Sequence record: KM657822
Source: Escherichia phage vB_EcoM-VpaE1
Reading direction: 5' to 3' (one strand)
Length of the DNA: 64,000 nucleotides
The translations under genes were made by a program, and so were the position numbers. The notes below the pieces were generated by a model, which was not told where the DNA came from, searched no databases, and worked only from the letters and a program-made list of their open reading frames with translations. Shown here piece by piece: positions 27,895 to 64,000 of this stretch; within the stretch, counting starts at the first letter, position 1, and each line of letters starts with the position of its first letter.

Positions 27895-27970
27895 GGGGTC
27901 ATAGTTTATATGGTTAAAATTCGAGTTTTGCAAACTTGGGAACTGAGTTCAATTCTCAGTGACTCCACCA
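27895..27970 (+). tRNA. tRNA-Ala (TGC)
   Basis: Anticodon stem cgagt/acttg, loop ttTGCaa; CCA. Confidence 0.7.
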
Positions 27971-27976
27971 ATTAGT

Positions 27977-28051
27977 GCATCCATAGTTTAAACGGGAAAA
28001 TTACAGTCTTCCAAACTGAGGTTGAGGGTTCGATTCCCTCTGGATGCTCCA
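27977..28051 (+). tRNA. tRNA-Gly (TCC)
   Basis: Anticodon loop ctTCCaa; T-loop GGTTCGATTCC; CCA. Confidence 0.65.
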
Positions 28052-28057
28052 AATAAT

Positions 28058-28134
28058 GCTGCTTTCGTATAATTGGCTATTACACATCCCTTGTAAGGAT
28101 GGAAATGCAGGTTCGAGTCCTGTGAGCAGCACCA
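28058..28134 (+). tRNA. tRNA-Thr (TGT)
   Basis: Anticodon stem catcc/ggatg, loop ctTGTaa; CCA. Confidence 0.7.
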
Positions 28135-28229
28135 ATTCAGAGGTCAAGTGAAAGACCGCTGGTGTCAACTGAAGACCGTAACAAATTCCACGGAGTTGAG
28201 TTAGCGGCACAACTTCAGACCTCTTTCAT

Positions 28230-28304
28230 ACTCGCTTAGTTTATATGGTAAAACATCACCCTTACAAGATGAAGAAAAAGGTTCAAGTCCTTTAGTGAGT
28301 ACCA
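28230..28304 (+). tRNA. tRNA-Val (TAC)
   Basis: Anticodon loop ctTACaa; T-arm aaagg-ttcaagt-ccttt; CCA. Confidence 0.65.
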
Positions 28305-28305
28305 T

Positions 28306-28383
28306 GTTCCAGTATCCCAATTGGCAGAGGATGCAAGCTCAAACCTTGTACTAGTGACGGTTCGAATCCGTCTTGGAACACCA
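28306..28383 (+). tRNA. tRNA with CAA anticodon (Leu by anticodon; short variable arm)
   Basis: Anticodon stem gcaag/cttgt, loop ctCAAac; T-arm gacgg-ttcgaat-ccgtc; CCA. Confidence 0.6.
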
Positions 28384-28402
28384 ATTTTGAGAGGCTATTT
28401 AG

Positions 28403-28960
28403 ATGAGATATTTGAAGTATGCTTCATGGATTTTCCTAGCTTTACTAGAACCATTTGCAGCAACCCTAGCAGTCATCTTAGCACCTTTCGTAGTTCCATT
28501 CTACAGTGAGAAGAAAGGACATCTACCTTTTGGATTCAGATGGATGGAGACCTATGACAACCCAATTGATGGTGATGAAGGCCACGTTAAAAGATGGGCT
28601 AAGATTAGAAAGATTGGTAAGCTGGGTGTCTACATGCAGAGAGTTGGATGGCTCTGGAGAAACAAAGCTTATAACTTCTCTTACCATGTATTAGGAAGAG
28701 ATGTAAAAGATGTTACTAAGTGGAAAGGTAATATCAACGTAAGTTCTAACCCTGAAGATAATCAGACTGGTTATCTCCTAATGTGGAACAGTAATGCTTG
28801 GGGATTATTCGCTTTTATCCCATCAATTAAAGTCTTTGGTAAACAGTTTTACTGGAGAATTTATGTTGGGTGGAAACTTAAAAGTGTTGTCCCAGAAGAA
28901 AGAGCATTCTCAAGGGAAAGAGTTATGTTGGCATTCTTTATTCATCCACTGAGAAAGTAA
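28403..28960 (+). CDS. hypothetical membrane protein encoded inside tRNA cluster
   Basis: 185-aa ORF with N-terminal hydrophobic segment, Trp-rich; no tRNA overlap. Confidence 0.5.
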   Translation: MRYLKYASWIFLALLEPFAATLAVILAPFVVPFYSEKKGHLPFGFRWMETYDNPIDGDEGHVKRWAKIRKIGKLGVYMQRVGWLWRNKAYNFSYHVLGRDVKDVTKWKGNINVSSNPEDNQTGYLLMWNSNAWGLFAFIPSIKVFGKQFYWRIYVGWKLKSVVPEERAFSRERVMLAFFIHPLRK

Positions 28961-28968
28961 AGATTTAA

Positions 28969-29044
28969 AGGGGATTAGTTTACAAGGTTAAAACCTCGGT
29001 CTTTGAAATCGAAGAAGTTGGTTCAATTCCAACATCCCCCGCCA
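28969..29044 (+). tRNA. tRNA-Gln (TTG)
   Basis: Anticodon loop ctTTGaa; unpaired 1-72 (A/C); CCA. Confidence 0.65.
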
Positions 29045-29046
29045 AT

Positions 29047-29125
29047 GCTCCATTACTCCAATTGGCAGAGAGGCCAGACTTAAAATCTGTGTTATGTATC
29101 GGTTCGAATCCGATATGGAGTACCA
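29047..29125 (+). tRNA. tRNA with TAA anticodon (Leu by anticodon; short variable arm)
   Basis: Anticodon loop ctTAAaa; T-arm atcgg-ttcgaat-ccgat; CCA. Confidence 0.6.
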
Positions 29126-29130
29126 AATTT

Positions 29131-29206
29131 AGCGGTATAGCATAACTGGCAATGCAACAGTCTCTGAAGCTGTCCTATTAAGGTTCAAATCCTTATGCCG
29201 CTGCCA
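29131..29206 (+). tRNA. tRNA-Gln (CTG)
   Basis: Anticodon stem acagt/gctgt, loop ctCTGaa; CCA. Confidence 0.65.
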
Positions 29207-29237
29207 CTTCTAAGGGTTCTTACGAGAGTCCTTAAAT

Positions 29238-29313
29238 GTGGCCTTATCATAAATGGTAATGACCCATGCTGTGAACATGGTCTATACGGGTTCAAATCCC
29301 GTAGGTCACCCCA
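29238..29313 (+). tRNA. tRNA-His (GTG)
   Basis: Anticodon stem ccatg/catgg, loop ctGTGaa; CCA. Confidence 0.7.
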
Positions 29314-29318
29314 ATTTA

Positions 29319-29395
29319 TAGTCCAAGTAGCTTATATGGTTAAAGCGCGTGTCTGAAAAACATGAGAAGAGGGTTCAAATCCCACTGGACTACCA
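29319..29395 (+). tRNA. tRNA-Phe (GAA)
   Basis: Anticodon loop ctGAAaa; T-loop GGTTCAAATCC; acceptor register ambiguous by 1-2 nt. Confidence 0.6.
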
Positions 29396-29411
29396 ATTTC
29401 AAAGGTGCTTA

Positions 29412-30146
29412 ATGAAAGAGATGACAGAACAAGGTAAGGAGATTTTTAATCTCTTAAAAACCGGTAAAGGGTTTTCTAACCCACTTATTACTGGTGCAGC
29501 AGTTCTCGGTGGAACCGTAGCTGCCTCTACATCACTTGTAAGCTCTATTAGCTCTGTAACAGACCCTGCAATGAAGGAGAAACTTGTTGCTGCTGGACTT
29601 ACAACAGTCCTTCTAAACAGCTTTACAACAAGCCTTACAAGCACTACAGCAACTACTAAGACCCTAACAGACTACGGTCAAAAGTCTATTGATGAGTTTT
29701 CATCACGTATGCAGGTAGCAAAGGGATATTCCAATGTTATGGGTGCAGCAGGAGAACAGGTTGGTTGTACACCATTCAGTGGTATTATGGGTGTTGCTAC
29801 AGAATATGGTCAAAAAGCTATTGACACAATTAACAGTACACTAGATAGTGTTAATGGTGTGTTAAGTGACTTACAAGATGCTATTGATAAGGGTCTTGAT
29901 ACTGTTTCTGATTTAGCTAACCAAGCTGTTAGTAAGATTAATGAAGGTATCTCAAAGATTACAGCTTATGCAGATGAAGTTGTGCAGATGATTGAAGAAG
30001 AAGCTGCCCTTATTGCAGAGTACCTTAAAACGAATATCAATGGGTTCTTAGCAGGTATCTTACCAGACTGGTTTGACGATGCTTGTAAAACTGGTGTGAT
30101 TGACACTATTGCAACACCAGAAATGAAGAACGCATTACAGAAATAA
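29412..30146 (+). CDS. hypothetical protein (Gly/Ala-rich N-region, helical C-region)
   Basis: Start moved to ATG 29412 after aaaggtg RBS, downstream of tRNA-Phe. Confidence 0.5.
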   Translation: MKEMTEQGKEIFNLLKTGKGFSNPLITGAAVLGGTVAASTSLVSSISSVTDPAMKEKLVAAGLTTVLLNSFTTSLTSTTATTKTLTDYGQKSIDEFSSRMQVAKGYSNVMGAAGEQVGCTPFSGIMGVATEYGQKAIDTINSTLDSVNGVLSDLQDAIDKGLDTVSDLANQAVSKINEGISKITAYADEVVQMIEEEAALIAEYLKTNINGFLAGILPDWFDDACKTGVIDTIATPEMKNALQK

Positions 30147-30147
30147 T

Positions 30148-30240
30148 GGAAGATTAACCCTAAAAGGTAAGGGAGCAGTTTGCTAAACTGCTAGTAGCTG
30201 AGAAATCGGTGTACCAGTTCAAGTCTGGTATCTTCCTCCA
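30148..30240 (+). tRNA. tRNA-Ser (GCT)
   Basis: 93 nt with long variable arm; anticodon stem gcagt/actgc, loop ttGCTaa; CCA; begins 2 nt after upstream stop codon. Confidence 0.7.
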
Positions 30241-30244
30241 ATTT

Positions 30245-30320
30245 GAATCCGTGACAGAAATGGATATGTGCCTGTCTGCAAAACAGGTTTATAAGGGTTC
30301 AAGTCCCTTCGGATTCTCCA
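30245..30320 (+). tRNA. tRNA-Cys (GCA)
   Basis: Anticodon stem cctgt/acagg, loop ctGCAaa; T-arm aaggg-ttcaagt-ccctt; CCA. Confidence 0.7.
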
Positions 30321-58617: not shown

Positions 58618-59223
<606 letters not shown>

Positions 59224-59289
59224 TTAGTTGATTGTTAAGTTGTTTGTAAAGAACCCTCAACAGAAGACTCTTTAGAAACTTGGTAGATT

Positions 59290-59700
59290 TTTAACGTGGC
59301 TACTACCATCCACCCATACCATACCGAACCTTACCTTACCAAACCAGACCGCGCCTTACCAAACCAGACCAAACATTACTTTACCCTACCTCATTAAAAG
59401 ACCCTCTTAAAGACCTTTTAAAAAGGTAAGTCTCATTTTAATGTAGCTGAGACTAACTACCCATACCTCACCCTACCAGACCAGACCTTACCCTGCCAGA
59501 CCCTACCGAACATCACTTAAAAATCCTCTTAGAAGACTCTTAAGTGATGTAATCGAATTTTAATGTAGCTCCGATTAACTACCCATACCCTGCTTTACCT
59601 TACCGTACCGTACTTTACCCTACCGTACCGAACAATACTTAACCCGACCTTACCCTACCGGACATCACTTAAAAACCCTCTTAGAAGACTCTTAAGTGAT
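59290..59700. repeat. G-poor ACCTTACC-type tracts plus conserved palindromic modules (three units)
   Basis: Same unit architecture and orientation as 57890-58150; near-identical 75-nt module at 59512-59585. Confidence 0.8.
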
Positions 59701-59915
59701 GCTGGTGAGTACCCGTTGGTTTATGATGCTCAGTATACTCACCAAATTTTCTATGTCAACAACTTTTATAAAAAAGTTCTGATAGCTATATGCGTCACGA
59801 AACAAAAGATTGTAAACAAGACACCCATTGCAAAAGATGTGTCCAAAAGCTTACTTGCAACATATGACAATACAAAGACAACCAGTATAAACAAAATGAC
59901 TGTACTGAACATAGT

Positions 59916-61019
59916 TTACTCATAATCCCTAATAACTAGCCCGACAGGGAACTGTAAAGAACCCTTACGAGTCATCTTCTGGAACTGAACCGTTAAAGGC
60001 TTCCCGATAAACTCTTCAGGATGCTCAGCAAGATACTGTTTCTTCTCATGAGTAGTCTTCCATGAGACATCTACAAAGACGTTAGGAAGAGTCTCTACAA
60101 CGAACTTGCCATGACCACGCTTATCAGTCTTTACACCAGTCACTTTAAACTCTTCAGTGTGCATCTTCTTGTGTTTAATCAAGAAGTATGAACGGTGACA
60201 ACACTCATAGAAGGAGTCTTCAGAGATTGAACGGTACATTGCACCTTCAAACTTAGCTTCAACCCACTTATCGTGAGCTTCATCAAACTCTTCCCAAGAA
60301 TTTACACGACGAGACTTAACAGGAACAACTTTACAGCCGTCTCTAAAGTCATTCAATGGTGAAGTCTCAATAATATCTCTACGTTCAGGCCATGTCTTAG
60401 TGCTATCACAGATGTCATACCAGTAGAACTTAAGAAGATGCCTGTCAGGGTTCTCTTCATTTTTAATCATGGAGACAATATCTTCCAAGTCCCATCCATG
60501 AGCATAAATCTCACCATCGAAGTGTTTAACTTTTGGGTGAAGTAGCATCATCTTGTTAATATCACCGATTAGCTCACGGGGTATATGATACTCTGTGTTC
60601 TCTCTTGAGTATGCTATGAAGCCTTGAAAAGCTATAGTATCTCGTGTAATCCTACAACGTACACCATCCAGTTTCGGTTGAGCATCAGCAGGGAACTTCA
60701 AATACTTTGCATGGCTAACCTTTGCAGCATCATGAGCAAGCTGTACACCTACCTTCTCAGTATTCTGTGCAGATTCTTTTGTGTAAGCATAACCTTTACG
60801 GTCAACTTGCTTTTTATACTTAGCAGCAACTTCAAAGAGAGCTTGCTGTTCAGCGTTACGCTCATTCTTTTTACCGATGTTTTTAGGTTCTGCTGTATAC
60901 TCTTCAAACATCATCTTGCCATTTTCTTTACCATAGGTTGTAATAACTTTGTCACCTACAGCAACGCATGACCAGACGTTGAAGGAACCATCTTTATTTT
61001 GTTTGTACAGAATTGTCAT
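59916..61019 (-). CDS. ATP-dependent DNA ligase
   Basis: Adenylation motif I PKLDGVRC (KxDG). Confidence 0.85.
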   Translation of the reverse strand: MTILYKQNKDGSFNVWSCVAVGDKVITTYGKENGKMMFEEYTAEPKNIGKKNERNAEQQALFEVAAKYKKQVDRKGYAYTKESAQNTEKVGVQLAHDAAKVSHAKYLKFPADAQPKLDGVRCRITRDTIAFQGFIAYSRENTEYHIPRELIGDINKMMLLHPKVKHFDGEIYAHGWDLEDIVSMIKNEENPDRHLLKFYWYDICDSTKTWPERRDIIETSPLNDFRDGCKVVPVKSRRVNSWEEFDEAHDKWVEAKFEGAMYRSISEDSFYECCHRSYFLIKHKKMHTEEFKVTGVKTDKRGHGKFVVETLPNVFVDVSWKTTHEKKQYLAEHPEEFIGKPLTVQFQKMTRKGSLQFPVGLVIRDYE

Positions 61020-61511: not shown

Positions 61512-62066
61512 TTAGTGTACTTCAAGCCAATTCTTACCAACTTTACCAGTACCAGTTACAAGCGTTTCCTCCTTAAGCCCTAAGTTTCTTGATGCCTGAC
61601 CATACATCCAGTCAATCACTGCTTTAACATCCTGTGTCATCTCTTCTGGGCACTCCCAACTATTCTCATCGTGGTATGCCAAAAGCAATCTAGCACCAAT
61701 AGCTGGTTTTCGACCATTCAGCTTTGTAAGACCCTCTTCACAAGTTCTTCTACAAGCGAGGTTGATGGCTTCATTCTGAACCTGACTTTCCGAACCCATG
61801 AGCAGATAATTCAATAGCTTGTGTGGAGATTTACACCACAACCATGCACCAGCAACCTTTACAAAACCACCTTTAGAGATTGCAGCAGTCTTACCAAATA
61901 CCTCTTCAAGAGCCTTCTTAGTGGCTTTGAAGTCTGCTTCTAAATTATCTATCAACTTCTTAATTTTAGGGAGGCGTACAAAGTATGTTTGCTTAGTTAA
62001 AGCACCCTCCTCAGTTGTAGATGCTTTAATCGTCTTAGCAAATTTCTCATCGCCAGCCCCGAACAA
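61512..62066 (-). CDS. DNA polymerase family A, C-terminal portion (downstream exon or fragment)
   Basis: Begins inside motif B (FGAGDEKFAKTI, cf. T7 YGAGDEK), contains motif C LAYHDE and the C-terminal GKNWLEVH. Confidence 0.8.
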   Translation of the reverse strand: MFGAGDEKFAKTIKASTTEEGALTKQTYFVRLPKIKKLIDNLEADFKATKKALEEVFGKTAAISKGGFVKVAGAWLWCKSPHKLLNYLLMGSESQVQNEAINLACRRTCEEGLTKLNGRKPAIGARLLLAYHDENSWECPEEMTQDVKAVIDWMYGQASRNLGLKEETLVTGTGKVGKNWLEVH

Positions 62067-62279
62067 TACATCTGGTCAATACACTCGCAAGGTGTACCAG
62101 TTCTCTTATGAACTTCTCCGCATTTCTACGGAGTGTCGGACTATATCACGTAGCAGTGGTGCTACCGTTGCACTTGGGGATGGTCATTAGCTTACCACCC
62201 TACTCTACTCAGTTCATACGTTAAGTATGCTTTTCGATAGTCTCTGAACGTTTCTCTGTTAGGAATCTCTATAGTTATG

Positions 62280-62516
62280 TTATTTGCTTAGGTAGTCAAT
62301 TGCTCTTTGCATATTATCAACGCTATCTGCAAGCAACCCCAAAGCTCTGTTGCAATTGTGGCATAACATACCTCTTACCTTTCCGGTTTTGTGGTCATGG
62401 TCAACAACAAGCTTAGCCTTGTGTCGTGAACCATTCATGATAAAACCTTCACCGCCACAAATTTGACATTTGTAATCACAGTTGCGGAGTAGAGTTTCGA
62501 CCTCTTCTCTTTCCAA
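62280..62516 (-). CDS. HNH endonuclease (Endonuclease VII family)
   Basis: CQICGGEG...LVVDHDHKTGKVRGMLCHNCNRALG. Confidence 0.75.
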   Translation of the reverse strand: MEREEVETLLRNCDYKCQICGGEGFIMNGSRHKAKLVVDHDHKTGKVRGMLCHNCNRALGLLADSVDNMQRAIDYLSK

Positions 62517-62740
62517 GCCATATTATGTCCTTTCTCACCGCAATGTGATGAACAATAAACTTGCCTTGCTGTTCTCGGCATGAACACCTCCTCACAGCTA
62601 GGACATTTCTTAGTAAGAACCCTGTGTTCTGCCCTTCTGTCAAATTTTAACACACAACTTCTGCACCGTTTTTGATTGTATTGGTACGGTTTAAACTCCG
62701 TGCCACACTCAGTGCATAATCTCTCTTCGTAACCTGCCAT
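62435..62740 (-). CDS. zinc-finger protein, probable N-terminal part of the homing endonuclease (different frame)
   Basis: CTEC...CRSC, CPSC...CSSHC cysteine pairs; overlaps the HNH ORF by about 80 nt in another frame. Confidence 0.5.
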   Translation of the reverse strand: MAGYEERLCTECGTEFKPYQYNQKRCRSCVLKFDRRAEHRVLTKKCPSCEEVFMPRTARQVYCSSHCGEKGHNMAWKEKRSKLYSATVITNVKFVAVKVLS

Positions 62741-62807
62741 TATCTCTCTCCTTTGTTTTAGGAGTCCTAACAGAGACTTCGCTGCTGATTACCATATCTT
62801 TACAGAC

Positions 62808-63974
62808 TTAGGCTTCCAGCAATTCACAACGTTTTACATGCGCCACTGACGCATAAATGCCATTTTTGGCTTTCTTACGACCTTTGCTAATTTCTTGAAG
62901 AAGATTTGTATCCTGAGTGGCTCGACAGGTCAAGATGTCTTCCTCTTTATTAAGGCTGAAGTAGATGCTATTTAAAGTATGCGCATCAGTTCCTGAGTAC
63001 ACTACGTACAAGTCATTTTCCGAATCATAATGCAAATACTTGTCAATCTCTGGGTTTAGATACTGGTCAAAATGTTTGCAATAGTACCTGCCATCCTCTT
63101 GTTTGACGAACTCAACCTCTTCTTTACCCTCTGTTACTGCTTTAGTGAACTCTTTATCACCCATAAAGTTACACAGCAGTACAAGTTGCGCGCTATTCAT
63201 ATCTGCTGAAACAATATTAGTTCCTTCCTCACAAGTCCAAACCTCCCTCATAGGTGCTCCATAGACAGCAGCACCAGACGGTACGTTTACAATACCATAT
63301 TGTGTCATACGTCCAGTTGAAGTACCAAACACCATTGCACCAGCACTAAGGCGACCATCAGGACGAATCTGGTTCAACCAACCTTTTTCATCATCCTTTG
63401 AGTTCTCAATAGTTCTGCGTCGGTGCATCAAAGTATAGTATTTCGCAATCTTCTGTCCAAGCTCACCTTCAATCGTATCATAGGATGATTCGGTAAGTTT
63501 TGGTGAAGTACGGATTAAGCAAGGTTCAAGCAAATCTGTGTACTTCTTAACAGACCAGTTATGCTCAATGTACTGTACACCTTCGTGCTCAACATAACTC
63601 AAACCACACCGCTCGACCATTTCCTGCCACTTAGGATGCTTTGTAATCATCTTTTTATTGTCTTTGAAACGACAAACTTTGACAGGGCGACCGTCTGAGT
63701 CTTTCTTGTAGTTCCAGTCATCTGGAATCCAACCAACTGATTTCAAGTAGTCTTTAACAACTGCTACCTGAGTCATACGAGAAACTTCAAACTCAATTGG
63801 TGTATATGGTGCATCAATCAAACCTGTGTAGCGACTTGACTCAAGTCCAAAGTGGTTAACAACGTGGCTGTTATAGTACTTCACAGTTTTGACTGTTTTT
63901 ACTGGCTTCCAGTCTTTGCATTTCTTACCAATCTTTGCGTTCAACTCATTGCAAATTGCACGAGCATCCTTCAT
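62808..63974 (-). CDS. DNA polymerase family A, N-terminal/middle portion (truncated by window end)
   Basis: PolA blocks GTSTGRMTQYG..NVP and motif A-like VSADMNSAQLVLL; ends with RKKAKNGIYAS aligning to the first half of motif B. Confidence 0.8.
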   Translation of the reverse strand: MKDARAICNELNAKIGKKCKDWKPVKTVKTVKYYNSHVVNHFGLESSRYTGLIDAPYTPIEFEVSRMTQVAVVKDYLKSVGWIPDDWNYKKDSDGRPVKVCRFKDNKKMITKHPKWQEMVERCGLSYVEHEGVQYIEHNWSVKKYTDLLEPCLIRTSPKLTESSYDTIEGELGQKIAKYYTLMHRRRTIENSKDDEKGWLNQIRPDGRLSAGAMVFGTSTGRMTQYGIVNVPSGAAVYGAPMREVWTCEEGTNIVSADMNSAQLVLLCNFMGDKEFTKAVTEGKEEVEFVKQEDGRYYCKHFDQYLNPEIDKYLHYDSENDLYVVYSGTDAHTLNSIYFSLNKEEDILTCRATQDTNLLQEISKGRKKAKNGIYASVAHVKRCELLEA

Positions 63975-64000
63975 TGCTACAAAGCCTTCCTTGTACTCTT

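Follow-up and report, generated by a model that had tools for sequence, protein, structure and literature searches.

A probable group I intron with a frameshifted endonuclease gene within the gene for DNA polymerase of the Felix O1-like Escherichia phage vB_EcoM-VpaE1

We describe here an insert that interrupts the family-A DNA polymerase gene of Escherichia phage vB_EcoM-VpaE1 (sequence record KM657822), of which a stretch of 64,000 nucleotides (nt), referred to below as the window, was analysed. All features of the polymerase locus lie on the minus strand. The 2.6 kb around the insert is 96.6% identical to Salmonella phage Sl26, in which the equivalent stretch is annotated as DNA polymerase, endonuclease VII and DNA polymerase, and the polymerase stretch matched 259 phage records, nearly all of them Felix O1-like myoviruses (Felixounavirus). 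The polymerase occupies two open reading frames (ORFs). The upstream one (62808..63974) ends in ...ISKGRKKAKNGIYAS VAHVKRCELLEA (written jointly, RKKAKNGIYASVAHVKRCELLEA); its frame is open up to 64000, so the polymerase gene continues beyond the window, and the homologous exon-1 ORF in Sl26 is 2205 nt long. The downstream one (61512..62066) starts with (L)FGAGDEKFAKT, and between the polymerase pieces lie two ORFs of 101 and 78 residues. The features of the locus are, in our reading:

62849..64000, minus strand: DNA polymerase exon 1, partial, the gene running past the window edge; 3' end ...AAA AAT GGC ATT TAT GCG T; PF00476 match
62069..62848, minus strand: predicted group I intron, subgroup IA2-like, 780 nt (from a manual structure, RF00028 and homologs)
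62435..62740, minus strand: putative endonuclease remnant A, a 101-residue ORF; N-terminal zinc-ribbon part (residues 1-71 of the intact protein), then out of frame
62523..62527, minus strand: deletion scar; about 9 codons (RVKNYYLRT) lost, frame shifted
62280..62516, minus strand: putative endonuclease remnant B, a 78-residue ORF; Endonuclease VII-type HNH domain, out of frame with A, TTG start only
61512..62068, minus strand: DNA polymerase exon 2; 5' end UA UUG UUC GGG GCU GGC GAU GAG AAA, its first 5 nt being the P10 strand

The first-pass annotation, made from the letters of this DNA alone, had proposed an insert of 740 base pairs within motif B of the polymerase. That the gene is interrupted in motif B is borne out by the ORFs, by an ungapped alignment with intron-less relatives and by a DNA_pol_A match (PF00476, E=1e-16) that spans the junction of the conceptually spliced polymerase. 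The size requires correction, as the insert measures 780 nt and begins 41 nt upstream of the stop codon of the upstream ORF, whose final 13 codons, past GIYA, are intron read-through. On the RNA the boundary of exon 1 and the intron reads ...AUU UAU GCG U|CAGUGGCGCAUGUAAAAC... and that of the intron and exon 2 ...GACCAGAUG|UAUUGUUCGGG. Excision of 62069..62848 yields ...GRKKAKNGIYALLFGAGDEKF..., with TATGCGT-TATTGTTC as the predicted ligated nucleotide junction and RKKAKNGIYALLFGAGDEK as the predicted spliced protein, which is colinear with intron-less relatives and places the insertion after the T of a T|TA (Leu) codon. Motif B can indeed be rebuilt from both ORFs, as the first pass had claimed, but not by the join of GIYAS to FGAGDEK suggested there: the junction residue is Leu, giving GIYA-L-LFGAGDEK.

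When the two exons were joined in a synthetic 400-nt junction, a single ungapped alignment was obtained with many intron-less relatives (400 of 400 positions in Shigella phage Sf16), an agreement far beyond chance. The junction protein, GIYALLFGAGDEK, is the same in the intron-less phages Sf16, UAB_Phi87 and radambza, and HY02 differs solely at a Ser upstream of the junction. Comparison with intron-less homologs, which had been put forward as a check, thus defines the exact insertion site, and excision restores an uninterrupted, colinear host gene, as is characteristic of group I introns. The site reads TATGCGT|TATTGTT in all 13 intron-containing alleles examined, and five intron-less alleles carry other synonymous codons there (GCC C|TG, GCA C|TG and others). 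Fixation of exon bases in the intron-containing alleles only is what would be expected if guide-sequence pairing is needed solely where the intron is present. Two elements form these pairings:

62849..62854, minus strand: P1 5' strand (exon AUGCGU), pairing with the internal guide sequence GCGCAU; its last U takes part in the U.G wobble at the 5' splice site
62838..62848, minus strand: intron nucleotides 1-11, made up of CAGUG (P10 strand) and then GCGCAU (internal guide sequence, P1 3' strand)

In P10 (UAUUG/CAGUG) bases 1-5 of exon 2 pair with bases 1-5 of the intron, and the intron ends in a G at 62069; the U.G wobble of P1, the terminal G and P10 are all features of group I splice sites.

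Alternatively, the polymerase might be a gene in pieces, in which a free-standing endonuclease cassette has split the coding sequence and its two parts, each translated on its own, form an active enzyme without splicing of the RNA, for which Aeh1 nrdA/mobE provides a precedent; the first pass had left open such a split polymerase made as two polypeptides. An endonuclease gene flanked by two ORFs would suit this arrangement, and 'DNA polymerase' appears twice, or as 'part I / part II', in the annotation of many GenBank records. However, the downstream piece has neither an ATG nor a Shine-Dalgarno sequence before 62066, and the TTG listed as its start is the motif-B Leu codon; the break falls within the O-helix; and the fixation of the guide-pairing bases just described also speaks against it. 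ORF-less versions of 268 nt interrupt the gene too, which is inexplicable by insertion of a cassette, and the ORF is enclosed by a group I core that is complete and strongly conserved. We therefore regard separately translated fragments as very improbable.

The group I core can be followed directly in the sequence. In a manual structure P1, P3 through P9.2 and P10 could all be drawn, with 86 of 86 pairs canonical. Its main blocks in the window are:

62765..62831, minus strand: 5' core, comprising the P3 5' strand, P4, P5 (GUAA loop), P4' and the P6/P6a 5' strand; RF00028 local match at 62731-62821
62248..62264, minus strand: P6a/P6 3' strand (UCCUAACAGAGA...GU), closing a 12-base-pair stem around the ORF
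62137..62246, minus strand: 3' catalytic core, comprising the P7 5' strand (in GUUCAGAGACUA), P7.1, P7.2, P3', P8, J8/7 and the P7 3' strand (GAUAUAGUCCG)
62069..62133, minus strand: P9 (GAAA tetraloop), P9.1, P9.2 and the terminal G at 62069

In intron numbering, where position 1 is 62848, the individual helices are placed as follows:

18-24 / 677-683: P3
28-33 / 61-66: P4
37-57: P5, with a GUAA loop
67-68 / 600-601: P6
73-84 / 585-596: P6a, 12 base pairs, surrounding the endonuclease ORF
603-610 / 707-712: P7, within the consensus elements GUUCAGAGACUA and GAUAUAGUCCG
620-634: P7.1
649-672: P7.2
684-699: P8
716-733: P9, with a GAAA loop
780: terminal G (omega-G), 62069

The core helices P3 to P8, including the P3/P7 pseudoknot, and the R and S consensus elements (GUUCAGAGACUA / GAUAUAGUC) occur in the expected order and with the expected spacing. 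P7 and P3' are separated by about 65 nt that hold two hairpins (P7.1 and P7.2) and a GAGUAGAGUAGGG linker, and no P2 is present, just 16 nt separating P1 from P4. Subgroup IA2 is defined by such additional, GUA-linked P7.1/P7.2 elements between P7 and P3', and P2 is likewise absent from the introns of phiI, W31 and Pf-WMP3 (PMC3428280). A 303-nt construct from which the ORF had been deleted gave z = -4.0, and its unconstrained centroid fold recovered P4, P5, P6/P6a, P7, P7.1, P7.2, P8, P9 and P9.1.

A covariance-model search, also suggested in the first pass, was informative mainly through relatives. Applied to the window, RF00028 (gathering threshold 50 bits) gave partial, sub-threshold matches only, one of 24 bits (E=0.0025) over P4-P6 at 62731-62821 and one of 13 bits over P6-P9, because roughly 500 nt of ORF splits the model. 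The ORF-less homologs in phages Mushroom (311 nt) and tootiki (268 nt), whose cores are near-identical to that of the window, match the full model (positions 1-253) at 62.3 bits (E=5e-14) and 61.3 bits, respectively, and their Rfam alignment agrees with the manual helix assignments. The tootiki core differs from the window solely in one compensated P6a pair and a truncated P6a loop.

Across 12 Felix-like cores 99.8% of the cells are paired, as compared to 30-44% when the partners are slid, and variable positions fall in loops and junctions or preserve pairing, with two exceptions. Two double compensatory changes were found, a P6a U-A to C-G (tootiki, L134) and a P8 C-G to U-A, along with five one-sided compatible changes. 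The Felix-like introns are 92-99% identical in the core, and their enclosed ORF falls to 71%; a core that is conserved while its ORF diverges fits strong constraint on the RNA.

Stronger covariation emerges from comparison with the Pakpunavirus intron (YS35, Ab02, K5). This intron resides in a different phage family, in a polymerase only distantly related to that of Felix O1-like phages, and yet has the same insertion point, after the first nucleotide of motif-B codon 11 (T|GT as compared to T|TA in Felix), the same IA2 layout with an endonuclease gene in P6a, and a similar 5' core (GCxCAUGUAAAAC..UGUGAAUU). Its site is confirmed by the intron-less phages Pa-U and TIETA (contiguous matches over 150 of 150 residues) and phiMK (149 of 150). 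Three states are found there too, namely no intron, an ORF-less intron of 269 nt (K5) and one of 710 nt (YS35), and the Ab02 insert has been described as 'related to an intron described in LUZ24' by Essoh et al. (PMC4482731). Most helices differ between the two groups through compensated changes. P1 is AUGCGU/GCGCAU in Felix, AUGGGU/GCCCAU in YS35 and AUGGAU/GUCCAU in K5; in P3, CGUUGUG/UGCAACG corresponds to CUGUGUG/CGCACAG, in P4, UGCUGG/UCAGCA to UCAGGG/UCCUGA, and in P9, CUCCGUA/UGCGGAG to CUGCAUG/CAUGCAG, each with Felix first, while in P7 one G-C becomes A-U.

With a complete core, ORF-less homologs above the Rfam threshold, covariation across genera and an exact junction, the first-pass suggestion of a group I intron is well supported, and we are highly confident that the insert belongs to subgroup IA2 of the group I introns, is situated in motif B of the Felixounavirus polymerase and carries a homing endonuclease gene of the Endonuclease VII type that was recently frameshifted. 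Several points nonetheless weigh against this assignment. Splicing is something we infer rather than observe, and the window intron's own RF00028 score stays under the gathering threshold. Covariation within the genus is thin, the core being near-invariant: 129 of 500 shuffles equalled the number of pairs in which both sides had changed. Two cells of peripheral P6a are mispaired. The strongest covariation rests on a correspondence between Felix and Pakpunavirus helices that was made by hand, and P7.1 and its flanks are assigned tentatively. The 22-nt deletion that disrupts the endonuclease gene is shared by none of the records in the phage collection and might stem from an error of sequencing or assembly.

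That the insert might instead be an intein or a group II intron was also considered; nothing speaks for this beyond the presence of an HNH domain, and such domains are found in some group II intron proteins as well. The insert is not in frame, meets a stop after 13 codons and has many stops across its 780 nt; a Pfam search returned no reverse-transcriptase or Hint domain, and RF00028 was the sole RNA-family match. The reading frames and the Rfam results refute both, leaving them a negligible probability.

In relatives the P6a loop of the intron holds a single ORF of 160-161 residues, intact in Sl26, LinBro, JLBYU32 and FSL SP-010, which encodes N-terminal zinc ribbons and a C-terminal Endonuclease VII-type HNH domain. 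The first pass had recognised an Endonuclease VII-type HNH protein in the insert; the domain is certainly there, as remnant B matches Endonuclease_7 (PF02945, E=1.4e-19), but the gene is not intact. Compared with all five intact copies aligned, the window has a net deletion of 22 nt, and in the window we found no single intact frame joining zinc ribbon and nuclease domain. A tblastn search with the intact Sl26 protein placed residues 1-71 at 62740-62528 and residues 81-160 at 62522-62283, in different frames and both at 99% identity. The endonuclease gene of this genome is, from these frames, probably dead.

It might be argued that the intron is spliced and its endonuclease still functional, the 22-nt gap being artefactual or the HNH half being expressed separately or by frameshifting. 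In support of this, the deletion is found in no other record, and both halves are otherwise undamaged and match the intact Sl26 protein at 99% identity, which means that any inactivation is either very recent or not real. On the other hand, 9 residues are lost at the start of the Endonuclease_7 domain, so that the Pfam match begins at profile position 13 as compared to 6 in Sl26; the HNH frame has a stop just upstream, a TTG start only and a poorly spaced AAGGA; no slippery site was seen; and loss of the endonuclease gene is common in the genus, with about 57 ORF-less copies. We consider a functional enzyme unlikely, though less so than the other alternatives above, and from the condition of the two halves we infer a very recent inactivation, a sequence error being less likely. 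Programmed frameshifting as such was rejected on the reading frames, the domains and the lack of a slippery site.

We also observed that the 311-nt Mushroom variant (L003:2501-2811), set against window positions 62280-62770, looks as if the endonuclease ORF had been cleanly removed between two short stretches that resemble each other, GACTCCTAAA(A/G)CAAA upstream of the ORF start and GACTACCTAAGCAAA at the ORF end; the 268-nt ORF-less variant additionally lacks most of P6a. In tootiki (L002:3307-3810) and Mushroom (L003:3355-3891) a free-standing homing endonuclease gene, annotated in Mushroom as HNH with an AP2 domain, overlaps the end of exon 2. No such gene is present at the end of exon 2 in the window. 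The free-standing endonucleases of these phages with ORF-less introns could be acting in trans on the polymerase gene.

We propose that the polymerase gene, taken as a group I intron-containing gene, would be transcribed as one pre-mRNA in which, once the ribozyme has folded, the bond after the U of GCGU (62849) is attacked by an external guanosine. Freed exon 1 would then attack after the terminal G (62069), and the ligated mRNA would encode an uninterrupted motif B, or O-helix, RKKAKNGIYALLFGAGDEK; on unspliced RNA, translation would stop 13 codons into the intron. In relatives the endonuclease presumably cuts intron-less polymerase alleles during co-infection, so that the intron spreads via gene conversion. 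Here the intron has probably kept its splicing and, after the frameshift, lost its self-mobility, which would make it an intermediate stage in a cycle of invasion, decay and loss.

Three states of the site are found in the genus: empty, an ORF-less intron of 267-311 nt and an ORF-bearing intron of about 800 nt. Some 260-300 Felix-like and related Ounavirinae records have the polymerase region, the majority of them intron-less; the intron occurs in about a third of the Felix O1-like records examined, and the phage collection holds about 39 full-length as well as the ORF-less copies. Judged by sequence, empty, invaded, decaying and ORF-less states all coexist. With the frameshifted gene of the window added to the empty, endonuclease-bearing and ORF-less states, Felixounavirus offers four states and a live system for measuring the homing cycle. 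We note as a side observation that in VSe11, VSe102, FG1m, FM4b and PMBT20 the homologous 2.6-kb stretch extends to about 3.33 kb and holds a second annotated HNH endonuclease, which suggests a further insertion in or beside the polymerase gene, possibly a second intron.

The polymerase is given as one joined coding sequence (CDS) in none of eight intron-bearing Felix-like records examined. In the Felix O1 genome introns were stated to be absent and the polymerase to be a single protein of 906 residues (PMC3185647), and the UAB_Phi87 polymerase is intact at 910 residues (PMC4837284). Moreno Switt et al. described endonuclease insertions in genes of Felix-like phages, with introns unmentioned (PMC3728262), while the paper on SPJ41, which is among the carriers of the ORF-less intron, lists 'two introns' from a scan for non-coding RNAs with no further comment (PMC9951933). 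None of the literature that we found describes the polymerase intron of Felixounavirus as such. In the present genome the two 'DNA polymerase' CDSs, including the ORF with the 13-codon read-through, should become one spliced gene encoding about 905 residues. Felix O1-like phages are widely used in biocontrol and typing of Salmonella and E. coli.

The kind of element described here is thoroughly known from T4 td, SPO1, phiI/W31, LUZ24 and Pf-WMP3 (PMC3428280), and as an ordinary mobile group I intron of a well-known phage kind it is of modest interest in itself. Its main value lies in a correct annotation and in a natural series for the life cycle of introns and their endonucleases. The T4 td intron, for instance, is likewise of subgroup IA2 with an ORF (I-TevI) in the P6 loop, but lies in a different gene and encodes a GIY-YIG enzyme. 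The polymerase introns of SPO1, SP82, Bastille and Pf-WMP3 (encoding I-HmuI, I-HmuII, I-BasI and I-PfoP3I; PMC3428280) are also the same kind of element, though the SPO1-type introns occupy another polymerase site (674, E. coli numbering) and encode a different HNH subfamily. The td, SPO1-type and Felix introns all sit in an essential, highly conserved coding segment and hold their homing endonuclease in a peripheral loop.

Closer parallels are found within motif B itself. With motif B numbered R1 to K19, the insertions lie as follows:

Berlinvirus: after nucleotide 2 of codon 7 (TT|T), 11 nt upstream of the Felix site
LUZ24: after nucleotide 1 of codon 9 (T|AT), 6 nt upstream of the Felix site
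Pakpunavirus and Felixounavirus: after nucleotide 1 of codon 11, the same site

The 669-nt group I intron of Pseudomonas phage LUZ24 (RF00028, 40.8 bits) interrupts a family-A polymerase in motif B. The flanking exons, when joined, are colinear with 85 intron-less Bruynogheviruses, and the endonuclease gene of the intron, gp35, stands upstream of the P7 core element as in Felix; the LUZ24 guide sequence (UCAUCU/GGAUGA) is unlike that of Felix. Splicing of the LUZ24 intron was reportedly shown experimentally by Ceyssens et al. in 2008. In Yersinia phage Berlin an IA2 intron interrupts motif B (RDNAKTF|IYG), and its HNH ORF is flanked by the P4-P6 region on one side and the GACUA/GAUAUAGUC elements on the other, a position that is P6a-like by eye, whereas a weak Rfam alignment (26 bits) puts the ORF in P8. 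The P9.1 sequence GUUCAUAAGAGAAC is common to the Berlin and window introns, and the remaining core helices could not be aligned by BLAST; the shared P9.1 was rejected as a sign of a special relationship with Berlin, the sequence also being found in unrelated IA2 introns. Bonocora and Shub (2004, 2009) are said to have described, in the T7-like phages phiI and W31, a polymerase IA2 intron with the HNH endonuclease I-TslI. The phiI/W31 intron has been assigned to 'site 881, E. coli numbering' (PMC3428280), which conflicts with the motif-B position that we found in Berlin and could not be reconciled with it.

The Felix endonuclease, with its zinc ribbon and Endonuclease VII-type HNH domain, is related to LUZ24 gp35 and to the Berlinvirus intron ORF. 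The intact Sl26 enzyme is 49% identical to the Berlinvirus ORF, 52% to gp35 and 40% to the Pakpunavirus YS35 protein, its nearest homologs outside the Felix group, and these three are 49-55% identical among themselves. Compared with the Pakpunavirus protein, that of Felix has an extra N-terminal zinc ribbon, and the window copy is frameshifted. According to a proposal attributed to Bonocora and Shub, endonucleases on the one hand and introns on the other come to target one conserved sequence independently and join up afterwards, and the I-TevI / I-BmoI case is said to be similar. We speculate that one Endonuclease VII-type lineage occupies IA2 introns at three staggered motif-B positions within 11 nt in four unrelated phage lineages, the preference of the endonuclease having come first and its union with ribozymes, or their re-positioning, having followed repeatedly. 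We put this forward tentatively, as a possibility that falls somewhat short of even odds. If true, the pathway of separate evolution and later union would be seen several times over. The life-cycle stages found side by side in the genus and the three neighbouring motif-B sites marked by one endonuclease family across distant phages together offer a tractable setting in which to study how introns and homing endonucleases meet and decay.

A pattern scan of viral contigs for IA2 introns (GTTCAGAGACTA N75-105 GATATAGTC) yielded at least 120 introns. Almost all of them lie in other genes, to judge by the flanking ORFs those for ribonucleotide reductase subunits among others, and a single one is the same intron as in the window. 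A search for exact 28-nt matches to the Felix 5' core gave just five contigs. We also observed intron cores 71-82% similar to parts of that of the window, between or beside pieces of the RNA polymerase genes in the Schitoviridae (N4-like) phages vB_EcoP-ZQ2 (Escherichia) and MIF8 (Erwinia), with an HNH endonuclease ORF in ZQ2 sandwiched between two 'RNA polymerase' CDSs, and a related intron core in another gene of 'Listeria phage LPML1'.

Elsewhere in the window, 23 tRNA genes are clustered at 25483-30317 on the plus strand, every one above the Rfam threshold, as is typical for Felix O1-like phages; Felix O1 itself has been reported with 22. Between an ORF at 58618..59220 (minus strand) and the DNA ligase gene at 59916..61019 (minus strand) lies an intergenic array (59260-59710) of three repeat units of about 150 nt, each headed by ATTTTAATGTAGCT and containing NNACC repeats that recur in runs with a 5-nt period; a near-perfect palindrome of about 40 nt closes each of the last two (59510-59550 and 59662-59701). 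This array might be a candidate origin or a regulatory array.

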